Shown here: positions 15,333-31,482 of the stretch, piece after piece
Position numbering within the stretch: position 1 is the first letter of the stretch
How the letters are laid out: each line of letters opens with the position of its first letter
DNA from: Bdellovibrionales bacterium
GTDB taxonomy: Bacteria > Bdellovibrionota > Bacteriovoracia > Bacteriovoracales > Bacteriovoracaceae
Length of the DNA: 64,000 nucleotides
Reading direction: 5' to 3'
Assembly: GCA_018646675.1 (NCBI GenBank)
Contig: JABGUH010000039.1
Location: 3,833 to 67,832, forward strand
Program-made: the position numbers and the translations under genes
The notes under the pieces: model-generated
Databases searched by the model: none
The model's input: only the letters and a program-made list of their open reading frames with translations
What the model was told of the DNA's origin: nothing

Positions 15333-17228
15333 ATGAAAAAGCAACTGCTTCCCCCAATTTTAAAAAATGATCAAGGCTTCGCAATTATCATTTTTGCCAT
15401 CACCATTGTCATCTTGATCGCCTTCGGCATTGCCAATATTGATATGGGGGCCAGTAATAAAGGTAAGGAGACGATTAAAAATATCATCCAAACCAAGGGA
15501 GGAGAGGAGCTAGCAAGAGTTCTACGGTTGAAAACGCTAAAGATCAAGGAGCGCCTGCTAGTGGGAACCAGTAGCGCTAGAAGTGCAGTTGAAGCGGACT
15601 ATCGCTGCTCCAGTGGATCTTCCATCGATACTCCCAGCTCTCATACGGTGGAGGTCGTTGATCCACAGCAGAGTATAATATTTATCTGTAAATTGAGCCA
15701 AAACAGCGGTGAAGATGGATACCTACTCTCTGCCTACTTAAAGAGGCGGGAGGAGATTCAAAAAAGGTTTTCTCAACTCTTTATTAATAAGCGTCAAGGT
15801 TCTGTGGGATTTATTAGCAGGGTTATCGGAAGCGTTAGCAGAACCAGAGATAGTGGTGAAAATGGAAGCCTGCTTAAACACTCCCCCCTATTTATTGGAG
15901 ATCTTATTACAACTGGGAGTAGTTCGACCACAACGCTAGAGTTGAAGGATAAGTCGAGTATTGTGCTAGGAGCGAGTACTACCTTTAAAATTGATGATTT
16001 TAAATTTAAAACTAAGCAGCAGCGGGTTGGTGTATTTACTGCCACCGCGGGGTTTATTAAGGCGTGGATTAGAAAAAAGAGTGAAAATCAACGGGTAATT
16101 TTTAAGACCAATAGTGCCGCCATGGGTATCAGAGGGACCGTCTTCTCTCTTAATGTTGCCAAGCTAAACGCAACCACCGGCCAATTTATTGATGATGTTA
16201 TGCTGGAAGAGGGGTGGATTGAGCTCAAAGATATCAATCAGAATGTGGTCATCGCTCAGTTAAAAATGGCTTATCAAAACGCCTCTACAGTGACGGAAGT
16301 TGATGGGTATACTAATGGTTATACTGGGGGTGGGAGCACAACAGGCACGACAGCAGCAATTCCCTCCCAGGAGAACCGTGCGATTCTCTACTTTGACACT
16401 GCCATCAACAGAATGGCGGCGTTAACAACCGCTGAGCCAATTAATAACAGTAGTGCAACTAGACAGCTATTGGCTTCTGCTGATACCAGTGATACTGAAC
16501 AACTGGCCGCCGTCAGCAACATCTCCACTGAAACTGCTGGATATGTTAGCACCATTAAAGATACCATTGCATTAAACCCTGGTGCCAATAACCCACTTTT
16601 AAATATTGCAGTCAATCCGGTACTGGTTGCATCTAATATTCCAGCTCCAGCAGTGAATGTGATGCCGAACCTAGCAGCGGCGGCGACGGCGATGAAAGTG
16701 ACAACGAAGAAGGACCTAAAGCAACAAGCAGCAGCACAGGCGGCCCCCGCCCCCCGAGCTAAATTTTCAGCTCGTAAAGCTCCACTGGTTGCAACCGCCA
16801 GTATGGCCCCACCGGCCGGAACTGCTGCGACTGGATTTACCTATACTGTATCCAATGCTGATCCGCTGCTGGATGAAGTAGAGACCGAAGTTGAGGAGAG
16901 AGAAGAGGATAAGGAGGATAAGAAGGAAGAGGATGAGGATGCTACTCCACTTACACCTGCTGAGAAAGCACAAGAGGCAAGAGATTTTAACCACCAAAAG
17001 CAAGAGCGGCTTGAGCAGTTAGAAGAGAAAATGACTGATGCAGAAATGCAAAAGTTAAAAGATATACTGTTAGATAAAAGTCTAGATGAACAGAGTAGAA
17101 TAATTATGGAAGCTGAGGAGAAGAGTAAAATTGAGCTTCAAGACTATCTTGAAGATTGGGAAGCACCTAATCCTGCTAAGGATAAATCATATTTGAAGAG
17201 GCTTAAGGACTATTTAATATTTTGGTAA
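15333..17228 (+). CDS. TadG-like N-terminal anchor / FecR-like domain protein with an Ala/Thr-rich linker and acidic coiled-coil tail
   Basis: 631 aa. The N-terminus DQGFAIIIFAITIVILIAFGIANIDMG resembles the TadE/TadG-like pilus-assembly membrane anchor. Residues ~185-275 (TTLELKDKSSIVLGASTTFKI...FKTNSAAMGIRGTVFSLNV) match the FecR-domain pattern. The C-terminal ~150 aa are highly acidic or Lys-rich (EVEEREEDKEDKKEEDED...). Confidence 0.55.
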   Translation: MKKQLLPPILKNDQGFAIIIFAITIVILIAFGIANIDMGASNKGKETIKNIIQTKGGEELARVLRLKTLKIKERLLVGTSSARSAVEADYRCSSGSSIDTPSSHTVEVVDPQQSIIFICKLSQNSGEDGYLLSAYLKRREEIQKRFSQLFINKRQGSVGFISRVIGSVSRTRDSGENGSLLKHSPLFIGDLITTGSSSTTTLELKDKSSIVLGASTTFKIDDFKFKTKQQRVGVFTATAGFIKAWIRKKSENQRVIFKTNSAAMGIRGTVFSLNVAKLNATTGQFIDDVMLEEGWIELKDINQNVVIAQLKMAYQNASTVTEVDGYTNGYTGGGSTTGTTAAIPSQENRAILYFDTAINRMAALTTAEPINNSSATRQLLASADTSDTEQLAAVSNISTETAGYVSTIKDTIALNPGANNPLLNIAVNPVLVASNIPAPAVNVMPNLAAAATAMKVTTKKDLKQQAAAQAAPAPRAKFSARKAPLVATASMAPPAGTAATGFTYTVSNADPLLDEVETEVEEREEDKEDKKEEDEDATPLTPAEKAQEARDFNHQKQERLEQLEEKMTDAEMQKLKDILLDKSLDEQSRIIMEAEEKSKIELQDYLEDWEAPNPAKDKSYLKRLKDYLIFW

Positions 17229-17231
17229 CCC

Positions 17232-17302
17232 CCAAAAGGTAACCGGTACCTTTTGGAGGCTATTCGCGTTATTTCTACCAAAAGGTACCGGTTACCTTTT
17301 GG
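17232..17302. terminator. Twin hairpins (two 25-nt elements, exact reverse complements) between convergent genes; candidate bidirectional terminator
   Basis: 17232-17256 is CCAAAAGGTA-ACCGG-TACCTTTTGG. 17278-17302 is CCAAAAGGTA-CCGGT-TACCTTTTGG. Each has a perfect 10-bp stem, and a 21-nt spacer separates them. They lie in the 84-nt gap between the stops at 17228 (+) and 17313 (-). Confidence 0.6.
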
Positions 17303-17312
17303 TTGAGATCTT

Positions 17313-19652
17313 TTAGTTGATCAGCTCAGCGACAATCTTCTCTGCGGTAATCGGCATCGACTTCACCCTAACTCCTAATGCATCATAGAGTGCATTGGCG
17401 ATTAGTGGGGCAGCCGGAATCATCGTATGCTCCCCCATTCCCCTGGCACCAAATGGGCCATCCCCCTGGGGAACTTCCACAATGATCGGTACTATCTGAT
17501 CAGGAGTATCAAGGGAGGTGGGAATTTTATAATCAGTAAAGTTGGGATTTAAGAGCCTCCCCTGATCATCAAAGCGCATATCTTCATACAGGACGGTAGC
17601 CAGACCTTGCAACATCCCTCCAGTGATCTGCCCTTTAACCAGATCGGGATTTAGGGCCTGACCACAATCGATCGCCAACACCACCTTGGGAATGGTGATC
17701 TTGCCGGTATCCCGGTCGATCTCAATCTCAATCGCACTGGCACCCACAGTATAGTGAACGTTGGGTTTGCCACCCTGACCCGTTTCAGGATCACTGAGGG
17801 CCGAGGTAAACTCTGGCATAAACATTCCACGCCCCACAATCGGGCCTCCGCGCCAACTACCATCCGGCAGCATCAAGCCATTGATGATAAATTCGGTGAA
17901 ATCCAAAGCGAAGTCCGGCTCAATTTTAGAGCGCACCTGACAGTTCTCTAAATAGATATCATCCCGAGGCATCTCCAAGACGTTTTCAATTAGATCAACG
18001 ATCTGATCACGAGCATCTTCGGCGGCACGCTTAACCGCATTGCCACAAGACCAGGTGATATGAGAGGCGACCGTCTGCCACTCATAGGGATTACGATCGG
18101 TATCAGGACTCTCCACCCGAATTTTTTCCGGTGGTACACCCAGTACTTCTGCTGCAATCTGGGCCATTACCGTCAGGTAGCCCTGACCTATCTCCATCCC
18201 CGAGACCATAATATTGATCGAAGCATCCTCATTAAATTTTAGAAAAGCGGTAGATGAAGCGTTAGGTGGCATCGCTGGAGCTTTCCAAAAGAGCGAGAAG
18301 CCACGGCCCCTTACTTTGCTGGAGTCGGACGGAATCTCTTTAGGGGTATCCCAAGCGATCTCCTGTTTTACTCGATCGATCGCCTCTAATAGACCATTGG
18401 CATGCATCGGAGCACCGTAGGCCAGTTGATCTCCGGCACGAATGGCATTCTTACGCCTAAACTCTACCTGGTCCATTCCCAACTGTTTAGCAATCTGATT
18501 GAAGTGAGACTCCAACCCAAAGATAAACTCCGAATAACCAAAGCCGCGATAGGGGCCCCCGGGAGGGAGGTTGGTGTAGACACAGACCGAGTCAATTTTT
18601 ACATTTGGGATGCGATATGGCCCTGTGGCCGAGAGACCAGCGGCATTTACCACATTTGCCCCATACTCCACATAGGCTCCAGCATCCCACAAAAGCGTCT
18701 GCTCTAAAGTGGTGATGGTGCCATCATTTTTCACACCGACTTTGATTGATGCCTCCACCCCTTGGCGCTGATAGGTATTGTAAAATTCCTGCTCTCTTGA
18801 CCACAAAAGTTTAACCGGTCGACCTGGCACTGTTGTCGCCAAAGCGGCGGCAACAATCTCCATCGTCACTCCCGCCTTACCGCCAAAACCACCACCAACA
18901 AAGGGGGTGATCACCCGTACATTTTGATGGGTGAAGCCGAGTGGGGCCAACGCCTCAGCAAAGAGGTGGCGCTGAGTATGGGGAGACTGAGAGGCAGTCC
19001 AGAGTGTCAAGCGGCCATCGTGATCAAGTTTCCCGACAGCAGCATGGTTCTCAATTGCACAGTGAGCGTAGCGCGGCACTACATAATTATCTTCGTACAC
19101 CAGATCAGCATCGCCAAATCCCTCCCCTACATCACCGCGACGAATTTTACGAAAGTGGGCGATATTAGAATCTTTTTTTGGGTAAAACCAAGGGACGTGA
19201 AAGTAGTTGGCCAGATCGGGATGAACCCGATCAACTCCCTGCTGTTGTAAGGCATCACCAACATTGAGTAGAGGTTTTAATTTTTTATACTTTACCTCTA
19301 CCAAGCGAGCCGCTTTTAAAGCAGTGGCCGGATCATTAGCAATAACCGCCGCCACCTGCTCACCGACAAAACGTACTCGATCCTGAGCAAAAATATAGCG
19401 ATCATGCATATAGAGACCAAAGCGGTAGGGAAACTCTTTGCCGGTTACTACCTTAACTACCCCTGGCAGCTCTTTGGCTTTTTTGGTATTGATCTTTTGA
19501 ATAATAGCGTAAGCGTGGGGACTCTCAACTACTGCGGCATATAGTAGGTCTGGGCCAAAATCTAGATCATCAACAAATTGAGCGGCTCCGGTGATCTTCG
19601 CCTTACCATCAACTCGAACAGCCGACTTACCGATATACTTATAGTTACTCAT
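17313..19652 (-). CDS. Xanthine dehydrogenase/aldehyde oxidase-family molybdopterin-binding large subunit
   Basis: 779 aa. The N-terminal a/b-hammerhead region is GKAKITGAAQFVDD. Also present are GGGFGGKAG and the C-terminal active-site region GARGMGEHTM. Directly preceded by 2Fe-2S and FAD subunit genes. Confidence 0.9.
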   Translation of the reverse strand: MSNYKYIGKSAVRVDGKAKITGAAQFVDDLDFGPDLLYAAVVESPHAYAIIQKINTKKAKELPGVVKVVTGKEFPYRFGLYMHDRYIFAQDRVRFVGEQVAAVIANDPATALKAARLVEVKYKKLKPLLNVGDALQQQGVDRVHPDLANYFHVPWFYPKKDSNIAHFRKIRRGDVGEGFGDADLVYEDNYVVPRYAHCAIENHAAVGKLDHDGRLTLWTASQSPHTQRHLFAEALAPLGFTHQNVRVITPFVGGGFGGKAGVTMEIVAAALATTVPGRPVKLLWSREQEFYNTYQRQGVEASIKVGVKNDGTITTLEQTLLWDAGAYVEYGANVVNAAGLSATGPYRIPNVKIDSVCVYTNLPPGGPYRGFGYSEFIFGLESHFNQIAKQLGMDQVEFRRKNAIRAGDQLAYGAPMHANGLLEAIDRVKQEIAWDTPKEIPSDSSKVRGRGFSLFWKAPAMPPNASSTAFLKFNEDASINIMVSGMEIGQGYLTVMAQIAAEVLGVPPEKIRVESPDTDRNPYEWQTVASHITWSCGNAVKRAAEDARDQIVDLIENVLEMPRDDIYLENCQVRSKIEPDFALDFTEFIINGLMLPDGSWRGGPIVGRGMFMPEFTSALSDPETGQGGKPNVHYTVGASAIEIEIDRDTGKITIPKVVLAIDCGQALNPDLVKGQITGGMLQGLATVLYEDMRFDDQGRLLNPNFTDYKIPTSLDTPDQIVPIIVEVPQGDGPFGARGMGEHTMIPAAPLIANALYDALGVRVKSMPITAEKIVAELIN

Positions 19653-19654
19653 AA

Positions 19655-20116
19655 CTACTTACCTCCATTATCAACAAGATCTAATACCGCATCGATAATC
19701 GGTGCATAGCCAGTACAGCGACAGAGATTTCCGGCCAATGCCTCCTCGATCTCACCTCTATTTGGTGAGCTGTTATGCTCTAGTAACTCGGTGGCAGCGA
19801 TCACCATCCCCGGCGCACAGAAGCCACACTGAAAGGCGTTCTGATCTAAAAAGGCTTTTTGTAGTGGGGTCAAACCACTCTGCATCAACCCTTCAAGAGT
19901 TGTGATCTCACACCCCTCCACTTCACATGCTAACACCAGACAACTTTTAATACTTTTGCCATCAAGTAAGATAGTACAAGTACCACAATCTCCCCGCTCA
20001 CAGCCACATTTGGGACTTTTAACTCCCAACTGCTCCCGTAGCGCGTGGAGCAGAGTTTGATTAGGTTGACACTCCAACCATCGGGTCTCGCTATTTAAAG
20101 TAAAACTAACTTTCAT
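19655..20116 (-). CDS. (2Fe-2S)-binding small subunit of the molybdenum hydroxylase
   Basis: 153 aa. The plant-type cluster is CGCERGDCGTCT. The second cluster is QCGFCAPGM...CRCTGY. The ATG overlaps the upstream stop (ATGA). Confidence 0.9.
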   Translation of the reverse strand: MKVSFTLNSETRWLECQPNQTLLHALREQLGVKSPKCGCERGDCGTCTILLDGKSIKSCLVLACEVEGCEITTLEGLMQSGLTPLQKAFLDQNAFQCGFCAPGMVIAATELLEHNSSPNRGEIEEALAGNLCRCTGYAPIIDAVLDLVDNGGK

Positions 20117-20967
20117 CTTAACCTCGCAACAGCAGTTTCAACTGCTCGCTCAAACATCACTTGACACATGTGAGTGCGATACTCCTTAGTGGCGCGAATA
20201 TCGGTAATAGGAGAGACTAGTGAGGGAATCAGAGTTACGGCCTGGCCAACTAAATTATCTGTAAGCTGTTTGCCATTAAGTAGTTTTTCCAACTGATCGG
20301 CCCTAAAGGGAGTTGGGGCCACCGCTCCAAAAGCGATACGATAGCGATCTCTGGGAAGTGCTACCACCGCCACTGAGGCTTGGGCCAGATCCTCTCCTCG
20401 ATAGCGTCCCAACTTAACAAAAGTCGCACCATGCTTTTGGGCCGGCATCTTGATCTCGATAGCACACACTAGCTCGCCCTTTCTGATTGCACTTTGACGA
20501 GAAGAGATAAACCACTGGTTAATCGGAACCTTTCTTACTCCTTTACTACTAACTACACAGACAACTGCATCATAAGTTAAAAGCAGTGGAGCACTATCAA
20601 GGGATGGCACCGCCGAACAGATATTACCTACCACCGTGGCGCGATTGCGAACAGCAACAGAGGCCACCGTCTGCGCCATCTCTTGCACGGCAGGAAAATA
20701 TTTCGCCATCTCCTTTGAATTTAGCAGATCAGAGAATGTACAAAGTGCCCCTATTTTGATGGTCGAGGGAGTAACACTTAAATGTTTTAAAGCATCAATC
20801 CCCTTAAGATCGATCAGGGAGTCAGGAGTGGCCAGATTCTCTTTAATATGACCGATCAGATCAGTCCCTCCCGACAACAGACGATGGTCACCCTTTTTAC
20901 TTAGTAGCTTACAGGCATGAGCGACACTCTTTGCCTTGATGTAATCAAACTGATGGGTAATAGTCAT
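20113..20967 (-). CDS. FAD-binding (CoxM/XdhB-like) medium subunit of the molybdenum hydroxylase
   Basis: FAD_binding_5-type N-terminus with LLSGGTDLIGHIKE, about 284 aa. The track ORF starts at 21024 inside the upstream gene. I prefer ATG at 20967 (MTITHQFDY...), preceded by AAGGA and 10 nt after the upstream stop. Confidence 0.85.
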   Translation of the reverse strand: MTITHQFDYIKAKSVAHACKLLSKKGDHRLLSGGTDLIGHIKENLATPDSLIDLKGIDALKHLSVTPSTIKIGALCTFSDLLNSKEMAKYFPAVQEMAQTVASVAVRNRATVVGNICSAVPSLDSAPLLLTYDAVVCVVSSKGVRKVPINQWFISSRQSAIRKGELVCAIEIKMPAQKHGATFVKLGRYRGEDLAQASVAVVALPRDRYRIAFGAVAPTPFRADQLEKLLNGKQLTDNLVGQAVTLIPSLVSPITDIRATKEYRTHMCQVMFERAVETAVARLR

Positions 20968-20977
20968 AGAATAATCC

Positions 20978-21793
20978 TTACTCAGTAAAGGCAACAATCC
21001 GACACATGGAAGACTCAAGCTCAATCCCCTTCAGAGGGAAGCAGCCTACCCAGGCACGACGATTGGAGAGCTGATCAATATCCCCTCCTAAATTCTCCGC
21101 ATGGACAATGCGCTTGGGAAATAACTTAATGTGCATCACTTGGTAGTACTCATCTTGTGGGAAGTAGCTATCCCACGACTCAGCGTCATGCTTCTCTTGC
21201 AATAACTTCTCTGCAGCGACAAAACTTGACTCATGGAGATGGCGCAAAATAGTGTTCATCGGATGGTCTGCACTACCGCAATCCACTCCAATCCACTTTA
21301 ACTCCATATCCATCACCCACTTGTGAAAATCACGACCGGGGCCAGGATGGCGAACAAAGTAGCGCATCTCATCGGACTCTGGCTGATCCCAACCATATTT
21401 ATGGTAGCCAGTATTAATGATCAAGATATCCCCTTTTTTAACCTCAACTCGATCAGTGATCATCTTCGGGGTATAAAGATCATAATCACCTACCGCATCA
21501 GAGATATCAACAACCGCTGCCGGCCCGACCCACTCACTCATCGGGACTTTACCAATTGGCCTTCCTGAGGGAAAGAAGTGAATCTCACCATCCATATGGG
21601 TTCCCACATGATTACTGGTTGTGATGATCTGTCCAGAAGCGCCACGCCCCATGTGAGCGCCAGCTATCCGCTTGAAGTATTGAATTCCCAATGGCATGTA
21701 AGTTGGCCAGGGTGGCGTATGAATACTTAAATCTTGAGTTAAGTCATACATCTGAATATCACTCATAAAGGAAAAAAAATCACGCTCTTTCAC
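20978..21793 (-). CDS. Cyclase-family metal-dependent amidohydrolase (arylformamidase/KynB-like)
   Basis: 271 aa carrying the family motif HxGTHxDxxxH (HVGTHMDGEIH). The GTG start at 21793 is preceded by AAGGAG. Confidence 0.75.
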   Translation of the reverse strand: MKERDFFSFMSDIQMYDLTQDLSIHTPPWPTYMPLGIQYFKRIAGAHMGRGASGQIITTSNHVGTHMDGEIHFFPSGRPIGKVPMSEWVGPAAVVDISDAVGDYDLYTPKMITDRVEVKKGDILIINTGYHKYGWDQPESDEMRYFVRHPGPGRDFHKWVMDMELKWIGVDCGSADHPMNTILRHLHESSFVAAEKLLQEKHDAESWDSYFPQDEYYQVMHIKLFPKRIVHAENLGGDIDQLSNRRAWVGCFPLKGIELESSMCRIVAFTE

Positions 21794-21844
21794 TACCGAC
21801 TCCTTTGCTATTATCCTTAACTGATCTAAAAAATCTGTCTAATC

Positions 21845-23251
21845 CTATTCCGTTTTAATATGTTCTGCCAAGCCTTGATAAGCCTTTAAAAATGGCTCCA
21901 TCGGCGCACTTAAGACTCCTGCTCCCACCTGGCCGACCCCAGCCTCTTTATGGGCCACTCCGGTATCAATAAAGGGAAGAATGCTCTTCTCCACCACTTT
22001 GGCCACATCAATTCCCGTCGGGGTGCCGCGAAAATCCAGTGCCGGGATCTGATAGATACTATTTTCAGCTATCGTAATCTCATACATCTGAAGCGTATAA
22101 TCAATAGCATCACGGCTCTTTCCACCAACAAACTGCACAATTGCTGGCGAGGCGGCAATGGCAAATCCTCCCAGACCACAGGTTTCAGTTATGGAGCTAT
22201 CACCAATATCAGGGTTAGCATCCTCCTTGGAGAAACCGGGGAAAAACAGAGCATCAGGCAGCGGGGCCTTGCCGACAAACCACTGATCCCCACAACCGGC
22301 CAGTTGTACCCCAAACTCTACCCCATTACGGGCCATCACCGTCACCAGCGAACTACCAGCAGTATTACCAGCACTATCTAATGAAGCTTTGCAGGCCGCC
22401 ATGGAGAGGTTTAAAAAGAAGTGATCATTACCATTGATAAAGTTTAAGGCTTGGGCCGCCAAACCTCGATCACTGCAACTCTCAATTACTGCCGGTGCTA
22501 AATGGCGATAGAGTAGTGAGGTGGCGGCGCGGTTGCGATTATGAACCTCATCCCCCATATGCAACGCTTGAGCGATAATACTCTTTAAATCAATTTTTCC
22601 CAGATGTTCAATCGCTGCTTGCAGTGCGGGATAGAGTTCACGCTCCATCCACTTTAGCCGTTCGATTACCTCGCTATCATAGGCCCCATAACGTAACACC
22701 TTTCCTAAACCCTCATTCATGGTGGCATAGGAGCAGTTCGCTCCACTCTCATTTTTTACTACAAAAACCGGCATAGAAGCAGAGACGATACCGGCCATCG
22801 GGCCGACCGTACCATGATGGTGGCATGGGGCAAACTCAATCTCTCCAGATGATGCTAATGCATGAGCCTGATCTGCTGTCTGGGCCATCCCCTCGTAGAT
22901 CAAAGCGGCAATCACTCCCCCCTGCATCGGGCCGCACATTCTCTGCCAAGAGATGGGTGGGCCAGAGTGTAAAATCAAATTACTCTTCATGCCTGGAATT
23001 TTATCTAAGGCTCGGCCCATTCCTACCCAATGAGGAGTTGCGGCCAATAGCTTTTGTACTGCCTGCTGATTTGCCTGTTCGATAGTCTTACTTTGAGATG
23101 AAATATACTCTCTGGTCTCAAGTGGGATAGCTGCGGGTGGCCGCCAATCCAGTTGGGTAGTGGCAATCCCCTGCTGCTTTAAAGCGTCAGAAAAGGCGGG
23201 AATCCCCATATTTATCACCTGCAACTTCTCTTTTAACAGATTGCTCATCAC
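21845..23251 (-). CDS. DUF1116-like protein (YlbE/AllG-like partner of FdrA)
   Basis: 468 aa, immediately downstream of and overlapping an FdrA-like gene, as in the E. coli fdrA-ylbE-ylbF arrangement. The call rests on gene context, length and general resemblance as I remember the family. It is not motif-proven. The start is either GTG 23251 or ATG 23248. Confidence 0.5.
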   Translation of the reverse strand: MMSNLLKEKLQVINMGIPAFSDALKQQGIATTQLDWRPPAAIPLETREYISSQSKTIEQANQQAVQKLLAATPHWVGMGRALDKIPGMKSNLILHSGPPISWQRMCGPMQGGVIAALIYEGMAQTADQAHALASSGEIEFAPCHHHGTVGPMAGIVSASMPVFVVKNESGANCSYATMNEGLGKVLRYGAYDSEVIERLKWMERELYPALQAAIEHLGKIDLKSIIAQALHMGDEVHNRNRAATSLLYRHLAPAVIESCSDRGLAAQALNFINGNDHFFLNLSMAACKASLDSAGNTAGSSLVTVMARNGVEFGVQLAGCGDQWFVGKAPLPDALFFPGFSKEDANPDIGDSSITETCGLGGFAIAASPAIVQFVGGKSRDAIDYTLQMYEITIAENSIYQIPALDFRGTPTGIDVAKVVEKSILPFIDTGVAHKEAGVGQVGAGVLSAPMEPFLKAYQGLAEHIKTE

Positions 23252-24825
23252 TCCCCCCCCTCTCTTTTATTTAACATGGTAATAATCGCTGCTGCCTGCA
23301 AAGTCGCACGAGCATTCGAGGGAGCAACAACAACTCCTGCTGCGATTAGTGCCGCCACAACCTGTTGCCGTTTTTGAGGATCTTGATCTGTTCCAGTCAC
23401 AGAACAAATAATAGCAAGATAGCTTCCGACCTTTTTTGCTGCTTGCTGCGCCTGATTAATTACCGGCAGTAGCTCTGACAGAGGGTCGGGATTGGCACCA
23501 TAACCTAAAACCAGATCCAGCAGAACCACTGCGGTCTGAGGGTCACATGCCTCATCAATTATCCGCTGATTACGAATGGAAAAATCGATCATCGGATGAG
23601 GACGACCATCGGTAAACTGATCATCTCCCAAATCAAGTAGTATGTGCTGAGTGCTCTGCCAAGGATCACTGATCGTACTAGATGCTCCAACTGGCGTGTT
23701 AGAAAATAGCGGAGCTAAATCTTTGCCAATTAGAAGCTGGGACTCACTACAAAAAGTACCACCACTAAAGAGGGCCCGTAAATATTTCTGATCACAACTC
23801 ATCTTCTCTACCATTGGAGCAGGATCAAACTTATCTTCTGAAAAAAGCTCTCCATCAGTTAAATCTAAAGCGGCCAGAGCGAGTTTGGCGCAATCCTCTA
23901 AATCACTCGCGATCTGAACACAACCGTCGGAATTAAAAGGTAGAGCGTTTAGATCTGCACCTTGAAAGAGCGCCACCACTGGTTTTAAACTTGGTTCTAA
24001 CAATTTTACTACTTTGGCCAAAACCTCGCTGGCGGCTGGCTTAGAGATTAAAACAATAACTTTGGTTTGGGGATCATCGATCAACTCTTGGAGGCCTTGT
24101 AAAAAAGTTATCCCTCCGACCTCAACTTTAAGATCACGCCCACCAGTTCCAATCGCATGAGAGATCCCACCACCACCATTGGAGATTAGAGAGGAGACCT
24201 CTTGTAAGCCGGTACCAGAGGCAGCAACGATCCCCACACTACCCGAGCTAACTTGATTGGCAAAGGCCAAGGGGACTCCCCCAATAATAGCAGTGCCACA
24301 GTCGGGCCCCATCAGGTAGAGATTACGCTTTTTGGCCTCCTGCTTAAGCTTGATCTCATCAGCAATAGAGATGTTATCAGAAAAAAGCATAACATTTAAT
24401 CCATGCGCAAGAGCGTCGTAAGCTTCCATCACGGCATAGCGGCCAGCAACTGAGATCAGGAGCAGATTGGCCGCAGGCATAACGCTAAGCCCACTCTCTA
24501 AACTCTTAGGTTGATACTCTAAGCCTCCCCCGACCGCCCCTGAAGTTTTACGTTTCTGATCCAATGCTAAAGAGATCTTTTCCAGCGTCGTTGCCACCAT
24601 CTTATCTGTTTTACCCATAACAACAATTAGCAGGTCACTATCTCCTCGCCCCGAAAATTTATCTATCAACATGGAAGCTCGCTCTAAGATCGCAAGATTC
24701 TCTTTAGTCGCCATCACTAGTGCAACTTCTAACCCTTTGTCCGGCAGGTTAAACTGCCGGGCCAACATCATCAGGGTGACTGAATCAAAATACTCGCTCT
24801 CTCTTACTAAGCCATCGACAACCAC
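23248..24825 (-). CDS. fdrA: FdrA-like protein (succinyl-CoA-synthetase-alpha-like fold)
   Basis: 525 aa. The N-terminus (EYFDSVTLMMLARQ) parallels E. coli FdrA (FQDSVSLMIISRK). SCS-alpha-like segments are MGPDCGTAIIGGVPLAFAN and VGIVAASGTGLQEV. The GTG start is preceded by AAGGAG. Confidence 0.7.
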   Translation of the reverse strand: MVVDGLVRESEYFDSVTLMMLARQFNLPDKGLEVALVMATKENLAILERASMLIDKFSGRGDSDLLIVVMGKTDKMVATTLEKISLALDQKRKTSGAVGGGLEYQPKSLESGLSVMPAANLLLISVAGRYAVMEAYDALAHGLNVMLFSDNISIADEIKLKQEAKKRNLYLMGPDCGTAIIGGVPLAFANQVSSGSVGIVAASGTGLQEVSSLISNGGGGISHAIGTGGRDLKVEVGGITFLQGLQELIDDPQTKVIVLISKPAASEVLAKVVKLLEPSLKPVVALFQGADLNALPFNSDGCVQIASDLEDCAKLALAALDLTDGELFSEDKFDPAPMVEKMSCDQKYLRALFSGGTFCSESQLLIGKDLAPLFSNTPVGASSTISDPWQSTQHILLDLGDDQFTDGRPHPMIDFSIRNQRIIDEACDPQTAVVLLDLVLGYGANPDPLSELLPVINQAQQAAKKVGSYLAIICSVTGTDQDPQKRQQVVAALIAAGVVVAPSNARATLQAAAIITMLNKREGGE

Positions 24826-25694
24826 TGTTCACTCCTTTCAATTCCCAAAACCAGACCAGATAAAAAATCAGATCCAGAGCTCTGGCCAAAATTATTGACC
24901 AAGTTATACGCAGACTTAAGTTGCTCTGGGGTGGATTTATGGTTAAGTAACTCTGTCAGTAGAGACTTTACCGGATAGGTAAATCTACCTTGTGCCACCA
25001 TCCCGGCCATACTATCCACCACTAAGTTATTACTACGGACCAAACACGCAATTTCGGCTCCCCGTTGGGATAAAAACTCACGGCCCATCGCCCACCCCAT
25101 CAGATAAGATGCGCTTGCTACTCCTAATAAAAAATCATCACCGGCGGGAGTCAAACCTGGGCCAATCCCCTTTAGCATCTTTGCACCTTTAGACCACTCT
25201 TCAGAGAAGAGGTAGTCAATCCCCTCTTGTAGCTGTTGATAAAAAGCACGGTTAAATGAATCCATTGCTGGCCGCCACCTGGAGTGAAGTAGAGATGCAA
25301 TCCCTCCTGGCTGACTTCCTAAGGCCAGCCACGTAGTTAACAATTTTATCCGCTGCTCAAGCATAGTAGTAGAGTTGAGTTCAACTTCAGGCCAATCTAG
25401 TTGGGAGTGGTAACAATCCCCTTGACCTTTATTTAAAACTATCACCTCTAAATCACTCACAACGACAAATGAGTTTTTATCAACTCGTAGCCAATCCCAT
25501 TGAGAGCTATCAGGAAGATGATCCACCATCACATGCAAAGGGCCATCCCCGACGGTGGCAGTTACGATTGAGGCGAGATAATCTCCACCACCATCTGTTG
25601 GTGCAAAATTGATAACCTGCTCGAAAGTAGATTGTTTATAATACTGTCCACAAGGCAGACTATCGCCGTAGGATAGAAGCTCCATCGCCACCAC
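24807..25694 (-). CDS. DUF2877-like protein (YlbF/AllH-like)
   Basis: 295 aa, directly upstream of and overlapping fdrA by 19 nt. It contains GIGPGLTPAGDDFLLG, which I remember as typical of this family. The call is mainly by context. The start is ambiguous: GTG 25694, GTG 25691 or ATG 25685. Confidence 0.45.
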   Translation of the reverse strand: MVAMELLSYGDSLPCGQYYKQSTFEQVINFAPTDGGGDYLASIVTATVGDGPLHVMVDHLPDSSQWDWLRVDKNSFVVVSDLEVIVLNKGQGDCYHSQLDWPEVELNSTTMLEQRIKLLTTWLALGSQPGGIASLLHSRWRPAMDSFNRAFYQQLQEGIDYLFSEEWSKGAKMLKGIGPGLTPAGDDFLLGVASASYLMGWAMGREFLSQRGAEIACLVRSNNLVVDSMAGMVAQGRFTYPVKSLLTELLNHKSTPEQLKSAYNLVNNFGQSSGSDFLSGLVLGIERSEQWLSMA

Positions 25695-25706
25695 ACTCTC
25701 CTTCGT

Positions 25707-26279
25707 CTAGGAGGTCTCTTTTAATAGTTTGATCAGTTTGCGAGCATCTGGACTGTCAGATCGTTTGACCAAGTAAAATAACAGCGTATCGGTATTGAGA
25801 ATGTGCGCACCCGCCTCTCTTAGCAGCTCGATACCATTTTGCCACTTAAGCTTTGATGAGGAGAGGACGGTATCTGTTAGCACTATTACCTGCTTACCCA
25901 TATCGAGTAGATCCAAAGTAGTTTGCAAAACACAGATCTGAGTCTCCAAACCGCTGACCACGACGATTGGGCGGTTGATCTCCTCCAGTCGATGAACAAA
26001 ATGCTCATTCCCCCCACAACTAAAGGTCGTCTTATCAATGAACTCCCCTTGAGTCTTTGGCCAACATGAGAGTACCTCCGGATCAGTTGCACCCAACCCT
26101 TTACGATACTGATCAGTACCAATCAATGGAACTCCCAACTGCTCAAACATTTTGACTAACAGTAAAATATTTTTACGACTGAGATCGACAAGATGGGAAT
26201 CCATCAGTTTAAAGTAACTACTTTGATAATCAATCAGGAGATACTGAATATTTTCAACCGTTAGATCCTTCCAGTTCAT
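25707..26279 (-). CDS. Isochorismatase-family cysteine hydrolase (amidase-type)
   Basis: 190 aa. It begins YLLIDYQ (catalytic Asp region) and contains VVVSGLETQICVLQT (catalytic Cys). The ATG is preceded by GGAGGGAAGAG. First gene of the 8-gene operon. Confidence 0.72.
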   Translation of the reverse strand: MNWKDLTVENIQYLLIDYQSSYFKLMDSHLVDLSRKNILLLVKMFEQLGVPLIGTDQYRKGLGATDPEVLSCWPKTQGEFIDKTTFSCGGNEHFVHRLEEINRPIVVVSGLETQICVLQTTLDLLDMGKQVIVLTDTVLSSSKLKWQNGIELLREAGAHILNTDTLLFYLVKRSDSPDARKLIKLLKETS

Positions 26280-26303
26280 CTCTTCCCTCCAAAGTAGAGC
26301 TTT

Positions 26304-26323
26304 ACCCTTACAAATATTAGGGT
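26304..26323 (-). promoter_or_regulatory. Candidate operator: inverted repeat ACCCT-N10-AGGGT upstream of the 8-gene operon
   Basis: ACCCTtacaaatattAGGGT lies 25-44 nt upstream of the isochorismatase-like ATG (26279), in the 84-nt gap after the YceI-like gene. The arms are only 5 bp and no regulator gene is nearby. Weak. Confidence 0.2.
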
Positions 26324-26363
26324 ATAGGTATACTAAGAAAGGGGGTGTTTGGCCATTTAGAGC

Positions 26364-26948
26364 TTAAAGCAAAAGCTTAAATTTAATCTCAACCATGTCC
26401 CGAACAGTGGCAATCCAAATTGAAGGATCGGGAATCTTTAATGCGCTAAGCGTAACATTGGAATTTCCACTAACCAAGATCCCTTCAGCAACTTCTTTTA
26501 TCGTAACTCTAATGGTAATTGGCAGCTCTGCTCCTCGAAGATTGATCGTAGCTGGATAACTCTGCTCCGCGACTCCAATAGTGATCGGAGCGCCTAGCTG
26601 GACTTTAATAGTCGGGTACTCTTTCGCACTAAAACATTGAGTGTACATCTTCTCATTACGCCCATCAACGTCGGTATCCATATCTTTAACTGCAAACGAG
26701 ATTGTGGCCCCCGATTGAATCGCTTTTCCCTGACGTACAAAAGTCGTATCAAATTTTTTCACCACTCCGGTAAATCCGGTGGTGATTATGCCCGCCTTAG
26801 TACTCTCCATCTCAAAGTGGAGATGAGTTGCTGCTTTTACTGCTGCTTCATAGCTACTATAAGAGAAGCTACGAGTGGTATCAGCAGCAAATATCGTTAG
26901 GGAGAAAATCAACAGGGAGAAAACAGTAACAAATCTCATCTTGAACAC
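26364..26948 (-). CDS. Secreted YceI-like (polyisoprenoid/lipid-binding beta-barrel) protein
   Basis: 194 aa with signal peptide MFKMRFVTVFSLLIFSLTIFA. The pattern is YceI-like: HLHFEMES..GIITTGFTGVVKKF, KDMDTDVDGRNEKM...FSAKEYPTIKV and INLRGAELPITIRV. Confidence 0.55.
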   Translation of the reverse strand: MFKMRFVTVFSLLIFSLTIFAADTTRSFSYSSYEAAVKAATHLHFEMESTKAGIITTGFTGVVKKFDTTFVRQGKAIQSGATISFAVKDMDTDVDGRNEKMYTQCFSAKEYPTIKVQLGAPITIGVAEQSYPATINLRGAELPITIRVTIKEVAEGILVSGNSNVTLSALKIPDPSIWIATVRDMVEIKFKLLL

Positions 26949-26970
26949 CTCATAAGTTTCAAATTATAGT

Positions 26971-28149
26971 TTATACTTTCAATAATCTCTTCAGCCCTTC
27001 CAATGGAGAGTAGATATTACCAATAATTCCCAAGAAGATATCCCCTCGCTCTCGCCTCTTAATCAGAGCGGCAATCAACCAGATCAACCATGGAATCTTA
27101 ATAATAAATTGAAATGCAGTATTTAAAATAACTTTATGGCGAAAAAATACCCTCTTACGTTCAGCATATCGAGTTAAGGCTTGCTGGTAAAGGTGGCTTG
27201 ACTTGCCAACACCAACATTAGTTAACTCACTGGCCAGAGTGTTGGCACTCCAAAGTGCAACAAACATTCCCTCGCCGGTTAAGGGGTCTAAAAAGCCAGC
27301 AGCATCACCAATCAGTGTTGCATTTTTGGCGACAATTTTATCCATATGGTTAGTCAAAGGGGTAACACTACTAATACCGACGCTCTCTGGAATCGAGCCA
27401 TATCTTGCCTCTAGCTGATCTGAGAGCATAATAAAACTGTTTAAAAGAGCTCTTGGATTTTTCTCCTGCTTAAAAAGGCTGCTATCACAAACTAATGAGA
27501 GATTGACCTCATACTCCCCGGTTGGGTCTATTCCAATATAGTTACCATCGGAAAAGATATGCATCTCCCCTTGTCGACGGTTAAGCTGTTTTGCTTGTAA
27601 GTGGCACTGCAGGGCCACCTTGGAAGTATCGATCCCCTCCTTGAGGCCCAGCTCACGAGCAGTGAAAGAGTGGCGGCCATCTGCACCGACCAGTAGATTT
27701 GCCTCAATCTGCTCTGAATCCTTCAACTGCAACAAAAAGCCATCACTTCCTTGCGAAGTAATCTGGTTTACAGTTGTACCAAGACGAACCGTCACCCCGG
27801 CCGCTTGCGCCAAATCAAGGAACTTGCGATCCAAACTCTCCCGATTAACTGCAATCCCTAACTGTTTTCCTCCATGTGATGGAAAAGTGGCATCAACATG
27901 GTAACGATTAAGAGCAAAAATTTGCATTCCAGTAATGGGAAGAAATTGATCTACAATCTCCTCCTTTAGCCCGATACTCTTTAATAACGAGACACCCGAA
28001 GGGCAGAGATATTCACCACACACTTTACGCCTGATGGTGGCCGCCCGTTCCAGCACTATGACTGAAAATCCTCCCAGTGCTAGTTGACGTGCACAAAGAG
28101 ATCCTGCGGGTCCTCCCCCAACAATGGCAACATCAAATTTAGCTTTCAC
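26971..28149 (-). CDS. FAD-dependent oxidoreductase (geranylgeranyl-reductase / flavin monooxygenase-like) with a C-terminal membrane helix
   Basis: 392 aa. The dinucleotide-binding motif is DVAIVGGGPAGS and the second FAD motif is GDAAGFLDPLTGEGM. A hydrophobic C-terminal segment is FQFIIKIPWLIWLIAALI. Overlaps the upstream exporter gene by 11 nt. Confidence 0.72.
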   Translation of the reverse strand: MKAKFDVAIVGGGPAGSLCARQLALGGFSVIVLERAATIRRKVCGEYLCPSGVSLLKSIGLKEEIVDQFLPITGMQIFALNRYHVDATFPSHGGKQLGIAVNRESLDRKFLDLAQAAGVTVRLGTTVNQITSQGSDGFLLQLKDSEQIEANLLVGADGRHSFTARELGLKEGIDTSKVALQCHLQAKQLNRRQGEMHIFSDGNYIGIDPTGEYEVNLSLVCDSSLFKQEKNPRALLNSFIMLSDQLEARYGSIPESVGISSVTPLTNHMDKIVAKNATLIGDAAGFLDPLTGEGMFVALWSANTLASELTNVGVGKSSHLYQQALTRYAERKRVFFRHKVILNTAFQFIIKIPWLIWLIAALIKRRERGDIFLGIIGNIYSPLEGLKRLLKV

Positions 28150-30241: not shown

Positions 30242-30244
30242 AGT

Positions 30245-31300
30245 TTATCTCCACTCCAACAGAATACTCTGGGCGGTAAAACCGGGGCCAAATGCCAACA
30301 TATATCCCTTCGCCCCTGCTTGAAACTCCTGTTGCTGCAACATGCGGTTTAATACAAAAATAACTGTCGCACTACTCATATTGCCATACTCCCGCAAGAT
30401 CGCCTTTGAGTCCAAAATATTGCGATCATAGGTGGTCAGATACTCTTCAACCATATGGGATATCTTCTTACCCCCGGGATGAAAAATATAGTGAGCAACA
30501 TCCTGAAAGGAGAGCCCATTGCGTTTGAAAAATGGCTCAATAATTCCCGGAAAATGAGACTGTATCTCAAACGGCACATCCTTATCCAGTACAATTTTAA
30601 GGCCAGAGTTGGTCAGATGATACCCCATCAGGTGAGTATTATCCGGAAAATGGTACATCGAGGTGTCAATAATAGTTGGCGCAACCTGGGGAGTATCCCC
30701 CAAAATGACACAAGAGGCTCCATCAGCAAAAGTTGCTGCACTGACGAAGTTCTCCATCGAGTGATCACCCTTTTGAAAAGTGATGGTGGGGGTCTCCACT
30801 GAGACTAGTGCCACCCTCTTTCCGGGGTTGCCCTTTAAGTATTGATGGGCATAGATCAGGCCAGAAGTTCCACCAGCACATCCCATCTCCGTTACTGGCA
30901 GTCGTTCAATATCTCCACGCATTTTTAACTGGTTAACTAGATAGGCATCCACCGATGGGATCATAAAGCCAGTACAACTGGTAGTTATAATGTAATCAAT
31001 ATCTGTTGGCTTTAGATCTGCCTTGGCCAGGGCCAAGAGGAGAACCTTCTCCCCCATTTTCTTCATCGCTTCTATATAGAGGTCATTTTTCTCCTCAAAT
31101 GACAGGTCGGAGAAGATCTGCTCAATTGGTAGTACTGAGCAACGAGAGTCAATATTGGATCCCTTCAATATAGTAACTGCTTTCCGCGCCGTCCGAGGGT
31201 CAACCGCTACAAACCAGCTGCGCTTTAAATAATCAACAATTTCAGGAGTCTCATAACGATACTCTCCCGGCAGTGCTGCTGTAGCGATCACCTTGCTCAT
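30245..31300 (-). CDS. Type III polyketide synthase (chalcone-synthase-like)
   Basis: The Cys-His-Asn triad sits in CHS-type contexts: ITTSCTGFMIPS, YIFHPGGKKI and YGNMSSATV. A C-terminal AFGPGFT is also present. This is not the FabH pattern. The ATG at 31300 (MSKVIATAALPG...) is preceded by GGGGGAGAG; the track start is 31321. Confidence 0.85.
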   Translation of the reverse strand: MSKVIATAALPGEYRYETPEIVDYLKRSWFVAVDPRTARKAVTILKGSNIDSRCSVLPIEQIFSDLSFEEKNDLYIEAMKKMGEKVLLLALAKADLKPTDIDYIITTSCTGFMIPSVDAYLVNQLKMRGDIERLPVTEMGCAGGTSGLIYAHQYLKGNPGKRVALVSVETPTITFQKGDHSMENFVSAATFADGASCVILGDTPQVAPTIIDTSMYHFPDNTHLMGYHLTNSGLKIVLDKDVPFEIQSHFPGIIEPFFKRNGLSFQDVAHYIFHPGGKKISHMVEEYLTTYDRNILDSKAILREYGNMSSATVIFVLNRMLQQQEFQAGAKGYMLAFGPGFTAQSILLEWR

Positions 31301-31482
31301 ACACTCTCCCCCCACCAGCATCTGTTAGATAAGCCACCATTATACTCACAATTCAAGAATTGTCGGTTTCTTAATGTTATTATTTTGTATTTATTGGCCT
31401 TAAATGCTACTCTTTCGACCTTTTTATATCGATATAAATTTTAATAATGATAATTAATATCAAAAAAATGGAGTTAAGCAAG

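Follow-up and report, generated by a model that had tools for sequence, protein, structure and literature searches.

Introduction

The AllF-AllG-AllH complex of Escherichia coli was shown in 2024, with the purified complex, to be oxamic transcarbamylase, which interconverts oxalurate plus phosphate and carbamoyl phosphate plus oxamate (PMC11326118), and allFGH are co-transcribed with the gene for the carbamate kinase AllK (PMC11326118). Annotation of nitrifier genomes has since drawn on this work (PMC12625717). The same three protein families (AllH/DUF2877, AllF/FdrA and AllG/DUF1116) are encoded side by side in the locus described here, an operon of eight genes on the minus strand of a 64,000-nucleotide (nt) stretch of a Bdellovibrionales genome (GenBank assembly GCA_018646675.1, contig JABGUH010000039.1, positions 3,833 to 67,832; hereafter the window). 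In this operon the trio is followed by genes for a cyclase-family amidohydrolase and a three-subunit molybdenum (Mo) hydroxylase, and preceded by one for an isochorismatase-family hydrolase. A first-pass annotation of this DNA had invoked the AllFGH precedent, which is real, and had read the eight genes as a self-contained route for the breakdown of an N-heterocycle.

A second described system is the classical oxidative pathway of pyrimidine catabolism, found in Rhodococcus and others, with uracil/thymine dehydrogenase (EC 1.17.99.4), barbiturase and ureidomalonase as its enzymes. The first of these is, as reported, a dehydrogenase containing Mo, flavin adenine dinucleotide (FAD) and iron-sulfur (Fe-S) clusters, and its activity has been known since the 1950s without a gene. 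Ureidomalonate is the homologue of oxalurate, longer by one carbon. The classical pathway is mentioned in PMC4051656 and PMC3758960. A literature search, with subscription journals outside its coverage, found no paper describing a DUF2877-FdrA-DUF1116 trio linked to a cyclase and a Mo hydroxylase.

The operon very probably represents a conserved module for the catabolism of a cyclic ureide, with a transcarbamylase step. The preferred reading, to which a probability of slightly over one half (about 0.52) is given, is that it takes uracil or thymine to barbiturate, barbiturate to ureidomalonate, ureidomalonate to carbamoyl phosphate and malonamate, and malonamate to malonate, every substrate and reaction of this route being inferred. 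The narrower proposition that uracil or thymine specifically is the substrate is, taken by itself, evenly balanced.

Results and discussion

Conservation of a seven-gene core

One genome per prokaryotic species was scanned with the DUF1116 protein, giving 115 confirmed relatives, of which 80 loci were kept, and their neighbourhoods were scored by tblastn with the window proteins and by all-against-all clustering of the neighbouring genes. The Verrucomicrobiota loci of high guanine-plus-cytosine content were scored by tblastn only, open reading frame (ORF) calls there having given spurious antisense entries (c10, c11, c14, c21, c25 and c26). The order DUF2877-FdrA-DUF1116-cyclase-FAD-2Fe-2S-Mo recurs in 59 further loci from about 11 phyla and was seen in Cloacimonadota, Bacteroidota, Verrucomicrobiota, Bdellovibrionota, Elusimicrobiota and Nitrospirota; Spirochaetota and Bacillota have the same core genes in a rearranged order. 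Across phyla, identity to the window proteins is 59-67% for DUF1116, 65-75% for the cyclase and 62-75% for the Mo subunit, with carriers in other phyla including Cloacimonadota, Bacteroidales, Verrucomicrobiota, Kiritimatiellia, Spirochaetota and Neomoorella. Many Verrucomicrobiota and Kiritimatiellota loci hold only FdrA, DUF1116 and cyclase genes together. Of 11 genomes with unlinked Mo genes, 10 have a Mo subunit gene at another site, its product 63-75% identical, and FAD and 2Fe-2S genes lie next to it in all eight of the loci fetched from those 10.

The window is contig C16 of a 3.16-Mb genome that is 94% complete, whose relatives are other Bacteriovoracaceae and further Bdellovibrionota. 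Among 41 such relatives, orthologues of the DUF1116-type protein, the cyclase and the Mo subunit each occur in the same three genomes and in no others, in one of which the Mo genes sit on another contig. The recurrent gene order, the co-occurrence of unlinked Mo orthologues and this three-way phyletic match together establish that the seven-gene core (H-F-G-cyclase-FAD-FeS-Mo) is a co-inherited functional unit. The first-pass annotation had treated all eight genes as one unit and had suggested a comparison of neighbourhoods; the comparison bears out a conserved unit, since gene order kept across phyla excludes chance adjacency, and it narrows the core to seven genes, the isochorismatase being specific to Bdellovibrionota. 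Nor is the block an assembly artefact or chimera, because contigs from three marine metagenome runs (two studies) tile it with 0 differences and long pieces cross the gene junctions, one spanning 19860-24209 and another 19211-21874, which includes the 51-nt gap between the DUF1116 and cyclase genes.

The DUF2877-FdrA-DUF1116 trio

Pfam and NCBIfam profiles support the domain calls previously made by eye for all eight proteins, DUF1116 and DUF2877 included. All three subunit families of the AllFGH type are present, adjacent and each above its profile cut-off: the DUF2877 protein matches Pfam PF11392 (AllH/DUF2877; 58.5 bits against a cut-off of 25), the FdrA-like protein matches Pfam Ligase_CoA and CoA_binding together with the NCBIfam FdrA subfamily PRK06091 (450.8 bits, cut-off 433), and the DUF1116 protein matches PF06545 (AllG/DUF1116; E 2e-97). 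Against the E. coli sequences, taken from the annotated K-12 record, the DUF1116 protein is 45% identical to AllG and 46% to YahG, the FdrA-like protein 38% to AllF and 39% to YahF, and the DUF2877 protein, along its C-terminal ~120 residues only, 34% to AllH and 27% to YahE; by these identities the window trio is about equally distant from AllFG and YahFG. YahG aligns with the DUF1116 protein over its full length, including the N-terminal ~55 residues that are missing from AllG, and the window order H-F-G is that of yahEFG, the order in allFGH being F-G-H.

In a maximum-likelihood tree, 64 DUF1116 proteins, nearly all from cyclase-bearing loci, form a single clade with a Shimodaira-Hasegawa approximate likelihood ratio (SH-aLRT) support of 100, followed outward by sister versions from Spirochaetota and Bacillota and then by YahG; a Burkholderiales clade, whose loci have neither cyclase nor Mo genes, branches separately, and AllG is outermost. 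Given this separate clade and the yahEFG gene order, the trio is, on sequence grounds, a third and uncharacterised branch of the AllFGH family and not an orthologue of the oxalurate enzyme.

The motif GISHAIGTGGRD of the FdrA-like protein has a His at the phospho-His position of succinyl-coenzyme A (CoA) ligase, as also seen in E. coli AllF (GITHAIGLGGRD). Its candidacy as a conserved phospho-His was ruled out, since 42 of the 48 orthologues with a recognisable motif, as well as E. coli YahF, have Gln here, and the residue is unlikely to be essential for catalysis in the family.

The molybdenum hydroxylase

The three subunits have the domains of a xanthine-dehydrogenase-family enzyme: FAD_binding_5 (PF00941) and CO_deh_flav_C (PF03450) in the FAD subunit, Fer2_2 (PF01799) and Fer2 (PF00111) in the 2Fe-2S subunit, with cluster Cys at 39/44/47/59 and 97/100/132/134, and Ald_Xan_dh_C (PF01315), MoCoBD_1 (PF02738) and MoCoBD_2 (PF20256) in the Mo subunit. 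The Mo subunit was placed by profile and phmmer scores against solved structures rather than by a tree, and it falls below every NCBIfam equivalog cut-off. Scores were 519 against 780 bits (XdhA), 437 against 784 (PucD) and 498 against 916 for the xanthine dehydrogenase models, 304 against 991 and 353 against 950 for the CoxL models, and, for the 4-hydroxybenzoyl-CoA reductase models, 513 against 995 with HcrA and, for the partner subunits, 113 against 405 with HcrB and 144 against 258 with HcrC. The best solved relative is the alpha subunit of the latter enzyme (352 bits), with CoxL at 256 bits and mammalian xanthine oxidoreductases at ~190.

The Mo subunit keeps the conserved Glu close to its C-terminal end: Glu741, in GMGEH, is aligned with that of HcrA, a residue that we take to be catalytic in the xanthine-dehydrogenase family. 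Ala260 follows GGGFGGK, at what is presumably the substrate-binding Glu of xanthine enzymes. The sequence has no CSFR, which we take to be the active-site loop of aerobic CO dehydrogenase, and together with the CoxL scores this places the enzyme outside the CO dehydrogenase group, a membership that would have undone the first-pass proposal. The Cys residues of the FAD subunit are dispersed and its length is unremarkable, with no Cys-rich insertion, so that it lacks the 4Fe-4S insertion that 4-hydroxybenzoyl-CoA reductase presumably carries in its beta (FAD) subunit. By these comparisons the enzyme is a Mo hydroxylase of the xanthine-dehydrogenase family, and no bona fide xanthine dehydrogenase, CO dehydrogenase or 4-hydroxybenzoyl-CoA reductase.

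A nicotinamide/nicotinate route, with the isochorismatase as nicotinamidase and the Mo enzyme as nicotinate dehydrogenase, was considered and rejected: the isochorismatase lies outside the core, the nicotinate dehydrogenase structure gives a low score (220 bits), and no nic genes are linked. The genome also encodes three more Mo subunits of the family (contigs C37, C47 and C26), 26-32% identical to that of the window, with a 2Fe-2S gene beside each and an FAD gene beside two, a large set for a 3.2-Mb genome.

The cyclase-family protein

The product of the gene that almost always directly follows DUF1116 matches Pfam PF04199 (E 5e-33; 114.7 bits against a cut-off of 23.1) and contains the previously noted motif HVGTHMDGEIH; the pattern HxG[TS]HxDGxxH is kept in 45 of 45 orthologues, which are 57-74% identical across phyla. 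An AlphaFold2 model built from 39 sequences (predicted local distance difference test score 84, predicted template modelling score 0.84) retrieved 34 chains at probability 1.00 in Foldseek, all of the cyclase family, headed by isatin hydrolase (5NNA, 5NMP and 4M8D; E 9e-14, template modelling (TM) score 0.70) with kynurenine formamidases next. By sequence the closest relative is kynurenine formamidase, a hydrolase of linear amides. The arylformamidase equivalog TIGR03035 was not passed (47.5 bits against a cut-off of 223), and no tryptophan-pathway genes lie near the cyclase gene. Isatin hydrolase is a cyclic amidohydrolase (PMC6117287), and the modelled fold suggests that the window protein resembles it at least as well as it does kynurenine formamidase. 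The deformylation step that had been part of the first-pass scheme is for this reason unlikely.

Interchangeable peripheral amidases

The isochorismatase-family protein matches Pfam PF00857 (81.3 bits, cut-off 27), and its best solved relatives are ISOC/MAR1-like proteins (8RKZ, E 1e-18). Asp (in LIDYQ), Lys (in DKTTFS) and Cys116 (in ETQICVLQT), which we take to be the D-K-C catalytic triad, are invariant in five orthologues, and Cys116 aligns with a conserved Cys of 8RKZ. The gene is confined to the window and five other Bdellovibrionota loci, immediately 5' of that for DUF2877 in each. That it might instead belong to an upstream polyketide synthase/YceI module was rejected, as in the five relatives it adjoins the DUF2877 gene while the genes further upstream differ.

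Three unrelated types of amidase were found at the edge of the core: the isochorismatase in 6 loci (the window included), an amidase-signature enzyme in 17, and a CN-hydrolase in 1, a Bdellovibrionales locus in which it takes the amidase position; no locus (0) has two of them. The amidase-signature enzyme follows the Mo gene in 17 Bacteroidota/Cloacimonadota loci, always together with a CoA-transferase of family III; among solved structures that match it over the full length, malonamidase E2 ranks first (E 3e-41). The core is thus fixed and the amidase interchangeable, and the occupation of one edge position by three unrelated amidases indicates that the pathway needs a hydrolase of small amides. 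By positional replacement alone, the isochorismatase is proposed to be the malonamidase of the window.

Genes linked to the core in other phyla

Permease, CoA-transferase, carbamate kinase and PucR-type regulator genes are linked to the core in other phyla. Such linked genes are the main clue to the substrate. Permeases of the NCS2 family occur in 10 loci from 6 phyla and score best as uracil permeases, with 359 bits compared with 223 on the xanthine permease model. Next to the Mo gene of the cultured Neomoorella carbonis lies a permease gene whose product passes the NCBIfam uracil-permease equivalog (657.7 bits, cut-off 477), and genes for aspartate carbamoyltransferase (pyrB), a dihydroorotase, a PucR-type regulator and two carbamate kinases belong to the same locus. 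The family III CoA-transferase of the 17 loci has its nearest relatives among dicarboxylate enzymes, for example YfdE and SUGCT. No barbiturase was seen in any of the 80 loci, and barbiturase PF09663 had no match in the window genome, in a search that was equally silent in all 14 control genomes. Neither the neighbour clustering nor the scanned neighbours contained a uricase, allantoinase, allantoicase or ureidoglycolate gene. The Burkholderiales loci, which have no cyclase or Mo genes, carry carbamate kinase, amidase, CoA-transferase and acyl-CoA ligase genes together with a thiamine pyrophosphate (TPP) enzyme of the oxalyl-CoA-decarboxylase/2-hydroxyacyl-CoA-lyase type, a set that would correspond to the needs of an oxalurate-oxamate-oxalate route; neighbour clustering gave no such TPP enzyme in cyclase-bearing loci.

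Three further arrangements were observed around the core. On the N. carbonis ACPs chromosome (locus L080, 1425-21367), genes for a dihydroorotase-like protein, aspartate carbamoyltransferase, carbamate kinase, fumarase alpha and beta and a second carbamate kinase are followed by the seven-gene core, the uracil permease, the PucR regulator, a GNAT-like protein without a Pfam family and a thiolase, a run that could be a pyrimidine catabolic island including an orotate/carbamoyl-aspartate branch. A thiolase and DUF35 pair and a protein of ~215 residues without a Pfam match (c24, GNAT-like by eye) stand beside the core in L006, L016, L067, L071-L074 and L080, being present in Verrucomicrobiota, Spirochaetota and Bacillota and absent in Bdellovibrionota, Bacteroidota and Cloacimonadota. 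In two Bdellovibrionota loci a gene for an AtoE-like transporter of short-chain fatty acids (PF02667; L014, 6040-7470; L046, 5633-7102) is transcribed divergently from that for DUF2877, and its product could carry malonate or a related small acid.

The operon itself has no carbamate kinase gene, the genome having one on another contig (C13:27923-28960). Such genes are linked to the core in both Bacillota loci, and 11 of 12 other carrier genomes have one, the sole exception also being without a Mo orthologue. With the arcC model, a carbamate kinase was found among 25 genomes of the window's family only in the 3 that carry the cluster, a pattern with a naive chance of 1 in 2,300, uncorrected for shared ancestry. 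Since the kinase gene lies beside one for ornithine carbamoyltransferase in these three genomes, its link to the operon may be indirect. The absence of carbamate kinase, transporter and regulator from the operon, remarked on in the first-pass annotation, is correct, and its self-containment is qualified in that the kinase needed for the product lies elsewhere in the genome. The kinase gene is the last of a run (C13:24851-28960) encoding a 443-residue protein without a Pfam family, ornithine carbamoyltransferase, a 281-residue protein without a Pfam family and the kinase, parts of which are kept in two other cluster-carrying members of the family.

Proposed pathway

In the first step of the route favoured here, the three-subunit Mo hydroxylase (FAD, 2Fe-2S and molybdenum cofactor) would hydroxylate uracil or thymine at C6 to give barbiturate, the ring of which would be opened by the cyclase-family metallo-amidohydrolase, in place of the unrelated classical barbiturase, to the acyl-urea ureidomalonate. 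The DUF2877-FdrA-DUF1116 complex, as an AllFGH paralogue, would then split ureidomalonate with phosphate into carbamoyl phosphate and malonamate, and the isochorismatase-family hydrolase, as the peripheral amidase, would deamidate malonamate to malonate and ammonia. Carbamoyl phosphate could be turned into adenosine triphosphate (ATP) by the unlinked carbamate kinase or be used by the neighbouring ornithine carbamoyltransferase; in other phyla the CoA-transferase would activate malonate. All five proposed activities, and a transporter, have a gene in the extended cluster.

The general logic put forward earlier, in which a ring is hydroxylated and opened, the acyl-ureido product processed and an amide removed, fits all the evidence. 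The choice among candidate N-heterocycles is sharper than before: a pyrimidine (uracil or thymine via barbiturate) fits best and purines, allantoin and nicotinate less well, because the genes linked in other phyla include uracil-type permeases, a malonamidase-like amidase with a dicarboxylate CoA-transferase, and carbamate kinases.

Several observations weigh on the other side. The locus appears in DNA runs only, three metatranscriptomes of the same study containing none of its sequence words. We know of no uracil dehydrogenase sequence for comparison, so the substrate of the Mo enzyme is read from context, and, to our knowledge, no substrate is established for any ISOC/MAR1-type isochorismatase. 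The similarity of the amidase-signature enzyme to malonamidase E2 is modest (145 bits), a GatA structure equalling that score over half the length; the oxalate enzyme YfdE matches the CoA-transferase no less closely than any other enzyme does; and in the fold search the margin between isatin hydrolase and kynurenine formamidase is slight (9e-14 against 1e-12). The carbamate kinase gene adjoins that for ornithine carbamoyltransferase in all three Bdellovibrionota carrier genomes, so that its co-occurrence with the cluster may reflect a citrulline/arginine pathway or shared ancestry, and a biosynthetic function may be enough to explain the presence of pyrB and a dihydroorotase gene near the Neomoorella cluster. 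No transporter is linked to the window operon, and no NCS2 (Xan_ur_permease) gene was found in the 94% complete genome by a search to which 12 of 14 control genomes responded; uracil, if it is the substrate, must consequently arise inside the cell. The Bdellovibrionota lineage is known for digesting prey nucleic acids, with which such an origin would agree. We advance tentatively, and at somewhat less than even odds, the fuller claim that this is a previously undescribed, ATP-yielding oxidative pyrimidine pathway, here burning intracellular pyrimidines, such as those set free when prey nucleic acids are digested, and using an ISOC-type isochorismatase as malonamidase.

Alternative explanations

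The alternative that survives best, while improbable, ends in a two-carbon product: a five-membered cyclic ureide (parabanate, 5-hydroxyhydantoin, or a Mo-oxidised hydantoin or imidazolone) would be opened by the cyclase to oxalurate, the trio would be a true oxamic transcarbamylase, and the amidase would convert oxamate to oxalate. We know of no abundant natural source of such rings, nor of a Mo hydroxylase producing them. The enzyme with the closest fold acts on isatin, which does have a vicinal dicarbonyl lactam like that of parabanate, and parabanate induced the activity in a Streptococcus, going by a 1965 paper as it appears in the reference list of PMC11326118. Oxalurate is the only demonstrated substrate of the enzyme family (PMC11326118), but the window trio falls in a clade separate from AllFGH. 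The resemblance of the linked CoA-transferase to the oxalate enzymes YfdE and Frc is set against amidases whose best full-length solved relative is malonamidase and permeases of the uracil type, and the oxalyl-CoA-decarboxylase-like TPP enzyme expected of an oxalate route is confined to the cyclase-less Burkholderiales loci.

Rather less probable still is a role in purine breakdown, with the Mo enzyme as xanthine/hypoxanthine dehydrogenase and the cyclase and trio processing a ureide from cleavage of the urate or xanthine ring. AllFGH is itself part of purine (allantoin) catabolism, the Neomoorella locus has a PucR-family regulator, and the best NCBIfam matches of the three Mo-enzyme subunits include XdhA, XdhB, XdhC and PucCDE. 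The xanthine dehydrogenase equivalogs are, however, missed widely (519 against 780 and 437 against 784 bits), Ala stands after GGGFGGK where xanthine enzymes presumably have the substrate-binding Glu, the linked permeases score far lower on the xanthine permease model, and the scanned neighbours include none of the uricase, allantoinase, allantoicase or ureidoglycolate genes.

Of about the same low probability is the possibility that the cyclase is not the ring opener, acting instead after the trio on the product amide or as an accessory of the complex, with the ring opened by another, unlinked enzyme. It is DUF1116, not the Mo genes, to which the cyclase gene is tied, and in loci whose Mo genes are elsewhere it remains beside the trio; kynurenine formamidase, the closest relative of the cyclase by sequence, acts on linear amides. 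A late-acting cyclase would, however, make three peripheral amidase families redundant, the core holds no other conserved candidate for ring opening, and no barbiturase homologue was found in the genome, though the controls of that search were silent.

Very improbable is a CoA-thioester route, in which the FdrA-like protein would be an ADP-forming acyl-CoA synthetase, the label it has had for a long time, and the Mo enzyme would act like 4-hydroxybenzoyl-CoA reductase on a (hetero)aromatic acyl-CoA. FdrA does share its fold with the alpha subunit of succinyl-CoA ligase, that reductase provides the nearest solved relative of the Mo subunit (352 bits), and CoA-transferase and thiolase/DUF35 genes are linked in other phyla, but E. 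coli AllFGH has transcarbamylase activity, the phospho-His position is Gln in 42/48 orthologues with the motif, HcrA is missed (513 against 995 bits), the FAD subunit scores poorly on HcrB and is without the Cys-rich insertion, and the invariant cyclase partner, uracil permease and carbamate kinases would be left unexplained.

Implications

If the pyrimidine route is correct, it would be a fourth bacterial one beside the reductive, Rut and classical oxidative pathways, conserving energy via carbamoyl phosphate, which would explain its spread among fermenters and syntrophs of digesters, sediments and guts. It would supply genes for the orphan uracil/thymine dehydrogenase, a barbiturase of the cyclase fold, adding a cyclic-ureide hydrolase to that family, and a second substrate class for enzymes of the AllFGH type, with a pathway not confined to anaerobes. 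One branch of the FdrA/DUF1116/DUF2877 families would gain a function, leaving fewer guesses for the uncharacterised E. coli yahEFG, and the labels ‘acyl-CoA synthetase FdrA’, ‘xanthine dehydrogenase’ and ‘cyclase’ would be replaced in well over a hundred genomes (115 relatives confirmed). The window adds an isochorismatase-bearing Bdellovibrionota version from a predatory lineage, in a marine genome that has no nucleobase permease and encodes three haem-copper oxidase homologues.

Gene layout, boundaries and neighbouring genes

The ORF listing of the window contains eight consecutive minus-strand ORFs, from 26279 down to 17313 (Table 1), with the overlaps and the 51-nt gap that the first-pass annotation had described. 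The DUF2877 and FdrA-like genes overlap by 19 nt (24807-24825), and 4-nt overlaps join the FdrA-like and DUF1116 genes (23248-23251) and the longest ORFs of the FAD and 2Fe-2S subunits (20113-20116); the gap between DUF1116 and cyclase genes is 51 nt (21794-21844) and the others 12 and 2 nt. A search of the 51-nt gap, named earlier as a place where transcripts might terminate, found no terminator-like site. The longest FAD ORF, if read from its TTG (21024), would share 47 nt with the cyclase gene, and an alternative ATG at 20966 has AAGGA just 5' of it and leaves a gap of 11 nt; judged by these signals, the ATG is the likelier start. The ribosome-binding site GGAGGG precedes the isochorismatase ATG at 26279, and a strong one, AAAGGAG, precedes the GTG of the cyclase gene at 21793.

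Table 1. Positions of the operon genes and flanking features in the window
Feature	Position	Strand	Remarks
Isochorismatase-family Cys hydrolase	25707-26279	-	190 residues; lineage-specific first gene of operon
AllH/DUF2877-like subunit	24807-25694	-	295 residues
AllF/FdrA-like subunit	23248-24825	-	525 residues; CoA_binding + Ligase_CoA fold
AllG/DUF1116-like subunit	21845-23251	-	468 residues
Cyclase-family (PF04199) metal-dependent amidohydrolase	20978-21793	-	271 residues
FAD subunit of Mo hydroxylase	20113-20966	-	likely ATG start 20966; longest ORF 20113-21024
2Fe-2S subunit	19655-20116	-	153 residues; two cluster motifs
Molybdopterin subunit	17313-19652	-	779 residues
Two perfect hairpins, probable bidirectional terminator	17232-17302	.	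between convergent Mo gene and FecR-domain gene
84-nt spacer, likely 5' boundary and promoter region	26280-26363	-	upstream of isochorismatase gene

At the 3' end of the operon, two perfect hairpins of 10 base pairs, one reading CCAAAAGGTAACCGGTACCTTTTGG and the other the reverse complement of this, probably mark its end as a bidirectional terminator. Metagenome contigs stop or diverge at the hairpins with differing flanks (loose ends 17225-17304), so that the region is perhaps a repeated element present elsewhere. An Rfam match to mir-624 at the hairpins was dismissed as chance (31.6 bits against a cut-off of 100); it was the only Rfam match in the window, and a riboswitch search of seven diverse loci gave nothing at gathering scores. 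At the 5' end no promoter was demonstrated in the 84-nt spacer, beyond which four further minus-strand genes reach 31321. These genes (26364-31321) encode a YceI-like protein, a geranylgeranyl-reductase-like flavoprotein, a 700-residue protein without a Pfam match and a type III polyketide synthase. None of the four adjoins the block in any relative, and they are a separate module.

Comparison with described systems

The Mo enzyme shares three separate subunits, the same domains and the conserved C-terminal Glu with HcrABC, E. coli XdhABC and Bacillus subtilis PucCDE, which give its highest scores, and differs in lying below their curated cut-offs, in the absence of the 4Fe-4S insertion, in the Ala after GGGFGGK and in forming its own orthologous group. 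The cyclase has the fold (TM score about 0.70) and HxGTHxDxxxH metal motif of isatin hydrolase and kynurenine formamidase (PF04199; PMC6117287, PMC4243253) but is only 17-18% identical to them in structural alignment; it is ~60 residues longer than kynurenine formamidase and constitutes a distinct, highly conserved subfamily linked to DUF1116. Malonamidase E2 of Bradyrhizobium (PDB 1OCK) resembles the peripheral amidase of other phyla, and the window has an isochorismatase of the ISOC/MAR1 subtype in the equivalent position. Among the amidases of the isochorismatase family are the maleamate amidohydrolase NicF, RutB and biuret hydrolase.

The yah cluster of E. coli has the same gene order (DUF2877-FdrA-DUF1116), with YahG the nearer E. 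coli paralogue in the tree, and likewise pairs the trio with a ring-type amidohydrolase (yahJ) and a carbamate-kinase-like gene (yahI); YahJ, however, belongs to the Amidohydro superfamily rather than the cyclase family, and there is no Mo hydroxylase. Its RefSeq annotation is generic only, and the literature search found no paper on the function of yahEFG. With allFGHK the window shares the three families (F and G 38-46% identical), the presumed chemistry, in which an N-acylurea is split by phosphate into an amide and carbamoyl phosphate, and a carbamate kinase in carrier genomes. It differs in that the window trio lies in a separate clade, has the order H-F-G and ~55 extra N-terminal residues in DUF1116, and stands in an operon that is tied to a cyclase and a Mo hydroxylase, without allantoin genes or a linked carbamate kinase, and whose predicted substrate is one carbon longer.

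With the classical oxidative pathway the proposed route has its first two intermediates, barbiturate and ureidomalonate, in common. The classical barbiturase has the AtzD/TrzD fold, whereas the proposed route would use a non-homologous enzyme of the cyclase fold; and where the classical pathway hydrolyses ureidomalonate to urea and malonate, the proposed cleavage would be phosphorolytic, with an extra amidase step and a product that can yield ATP.

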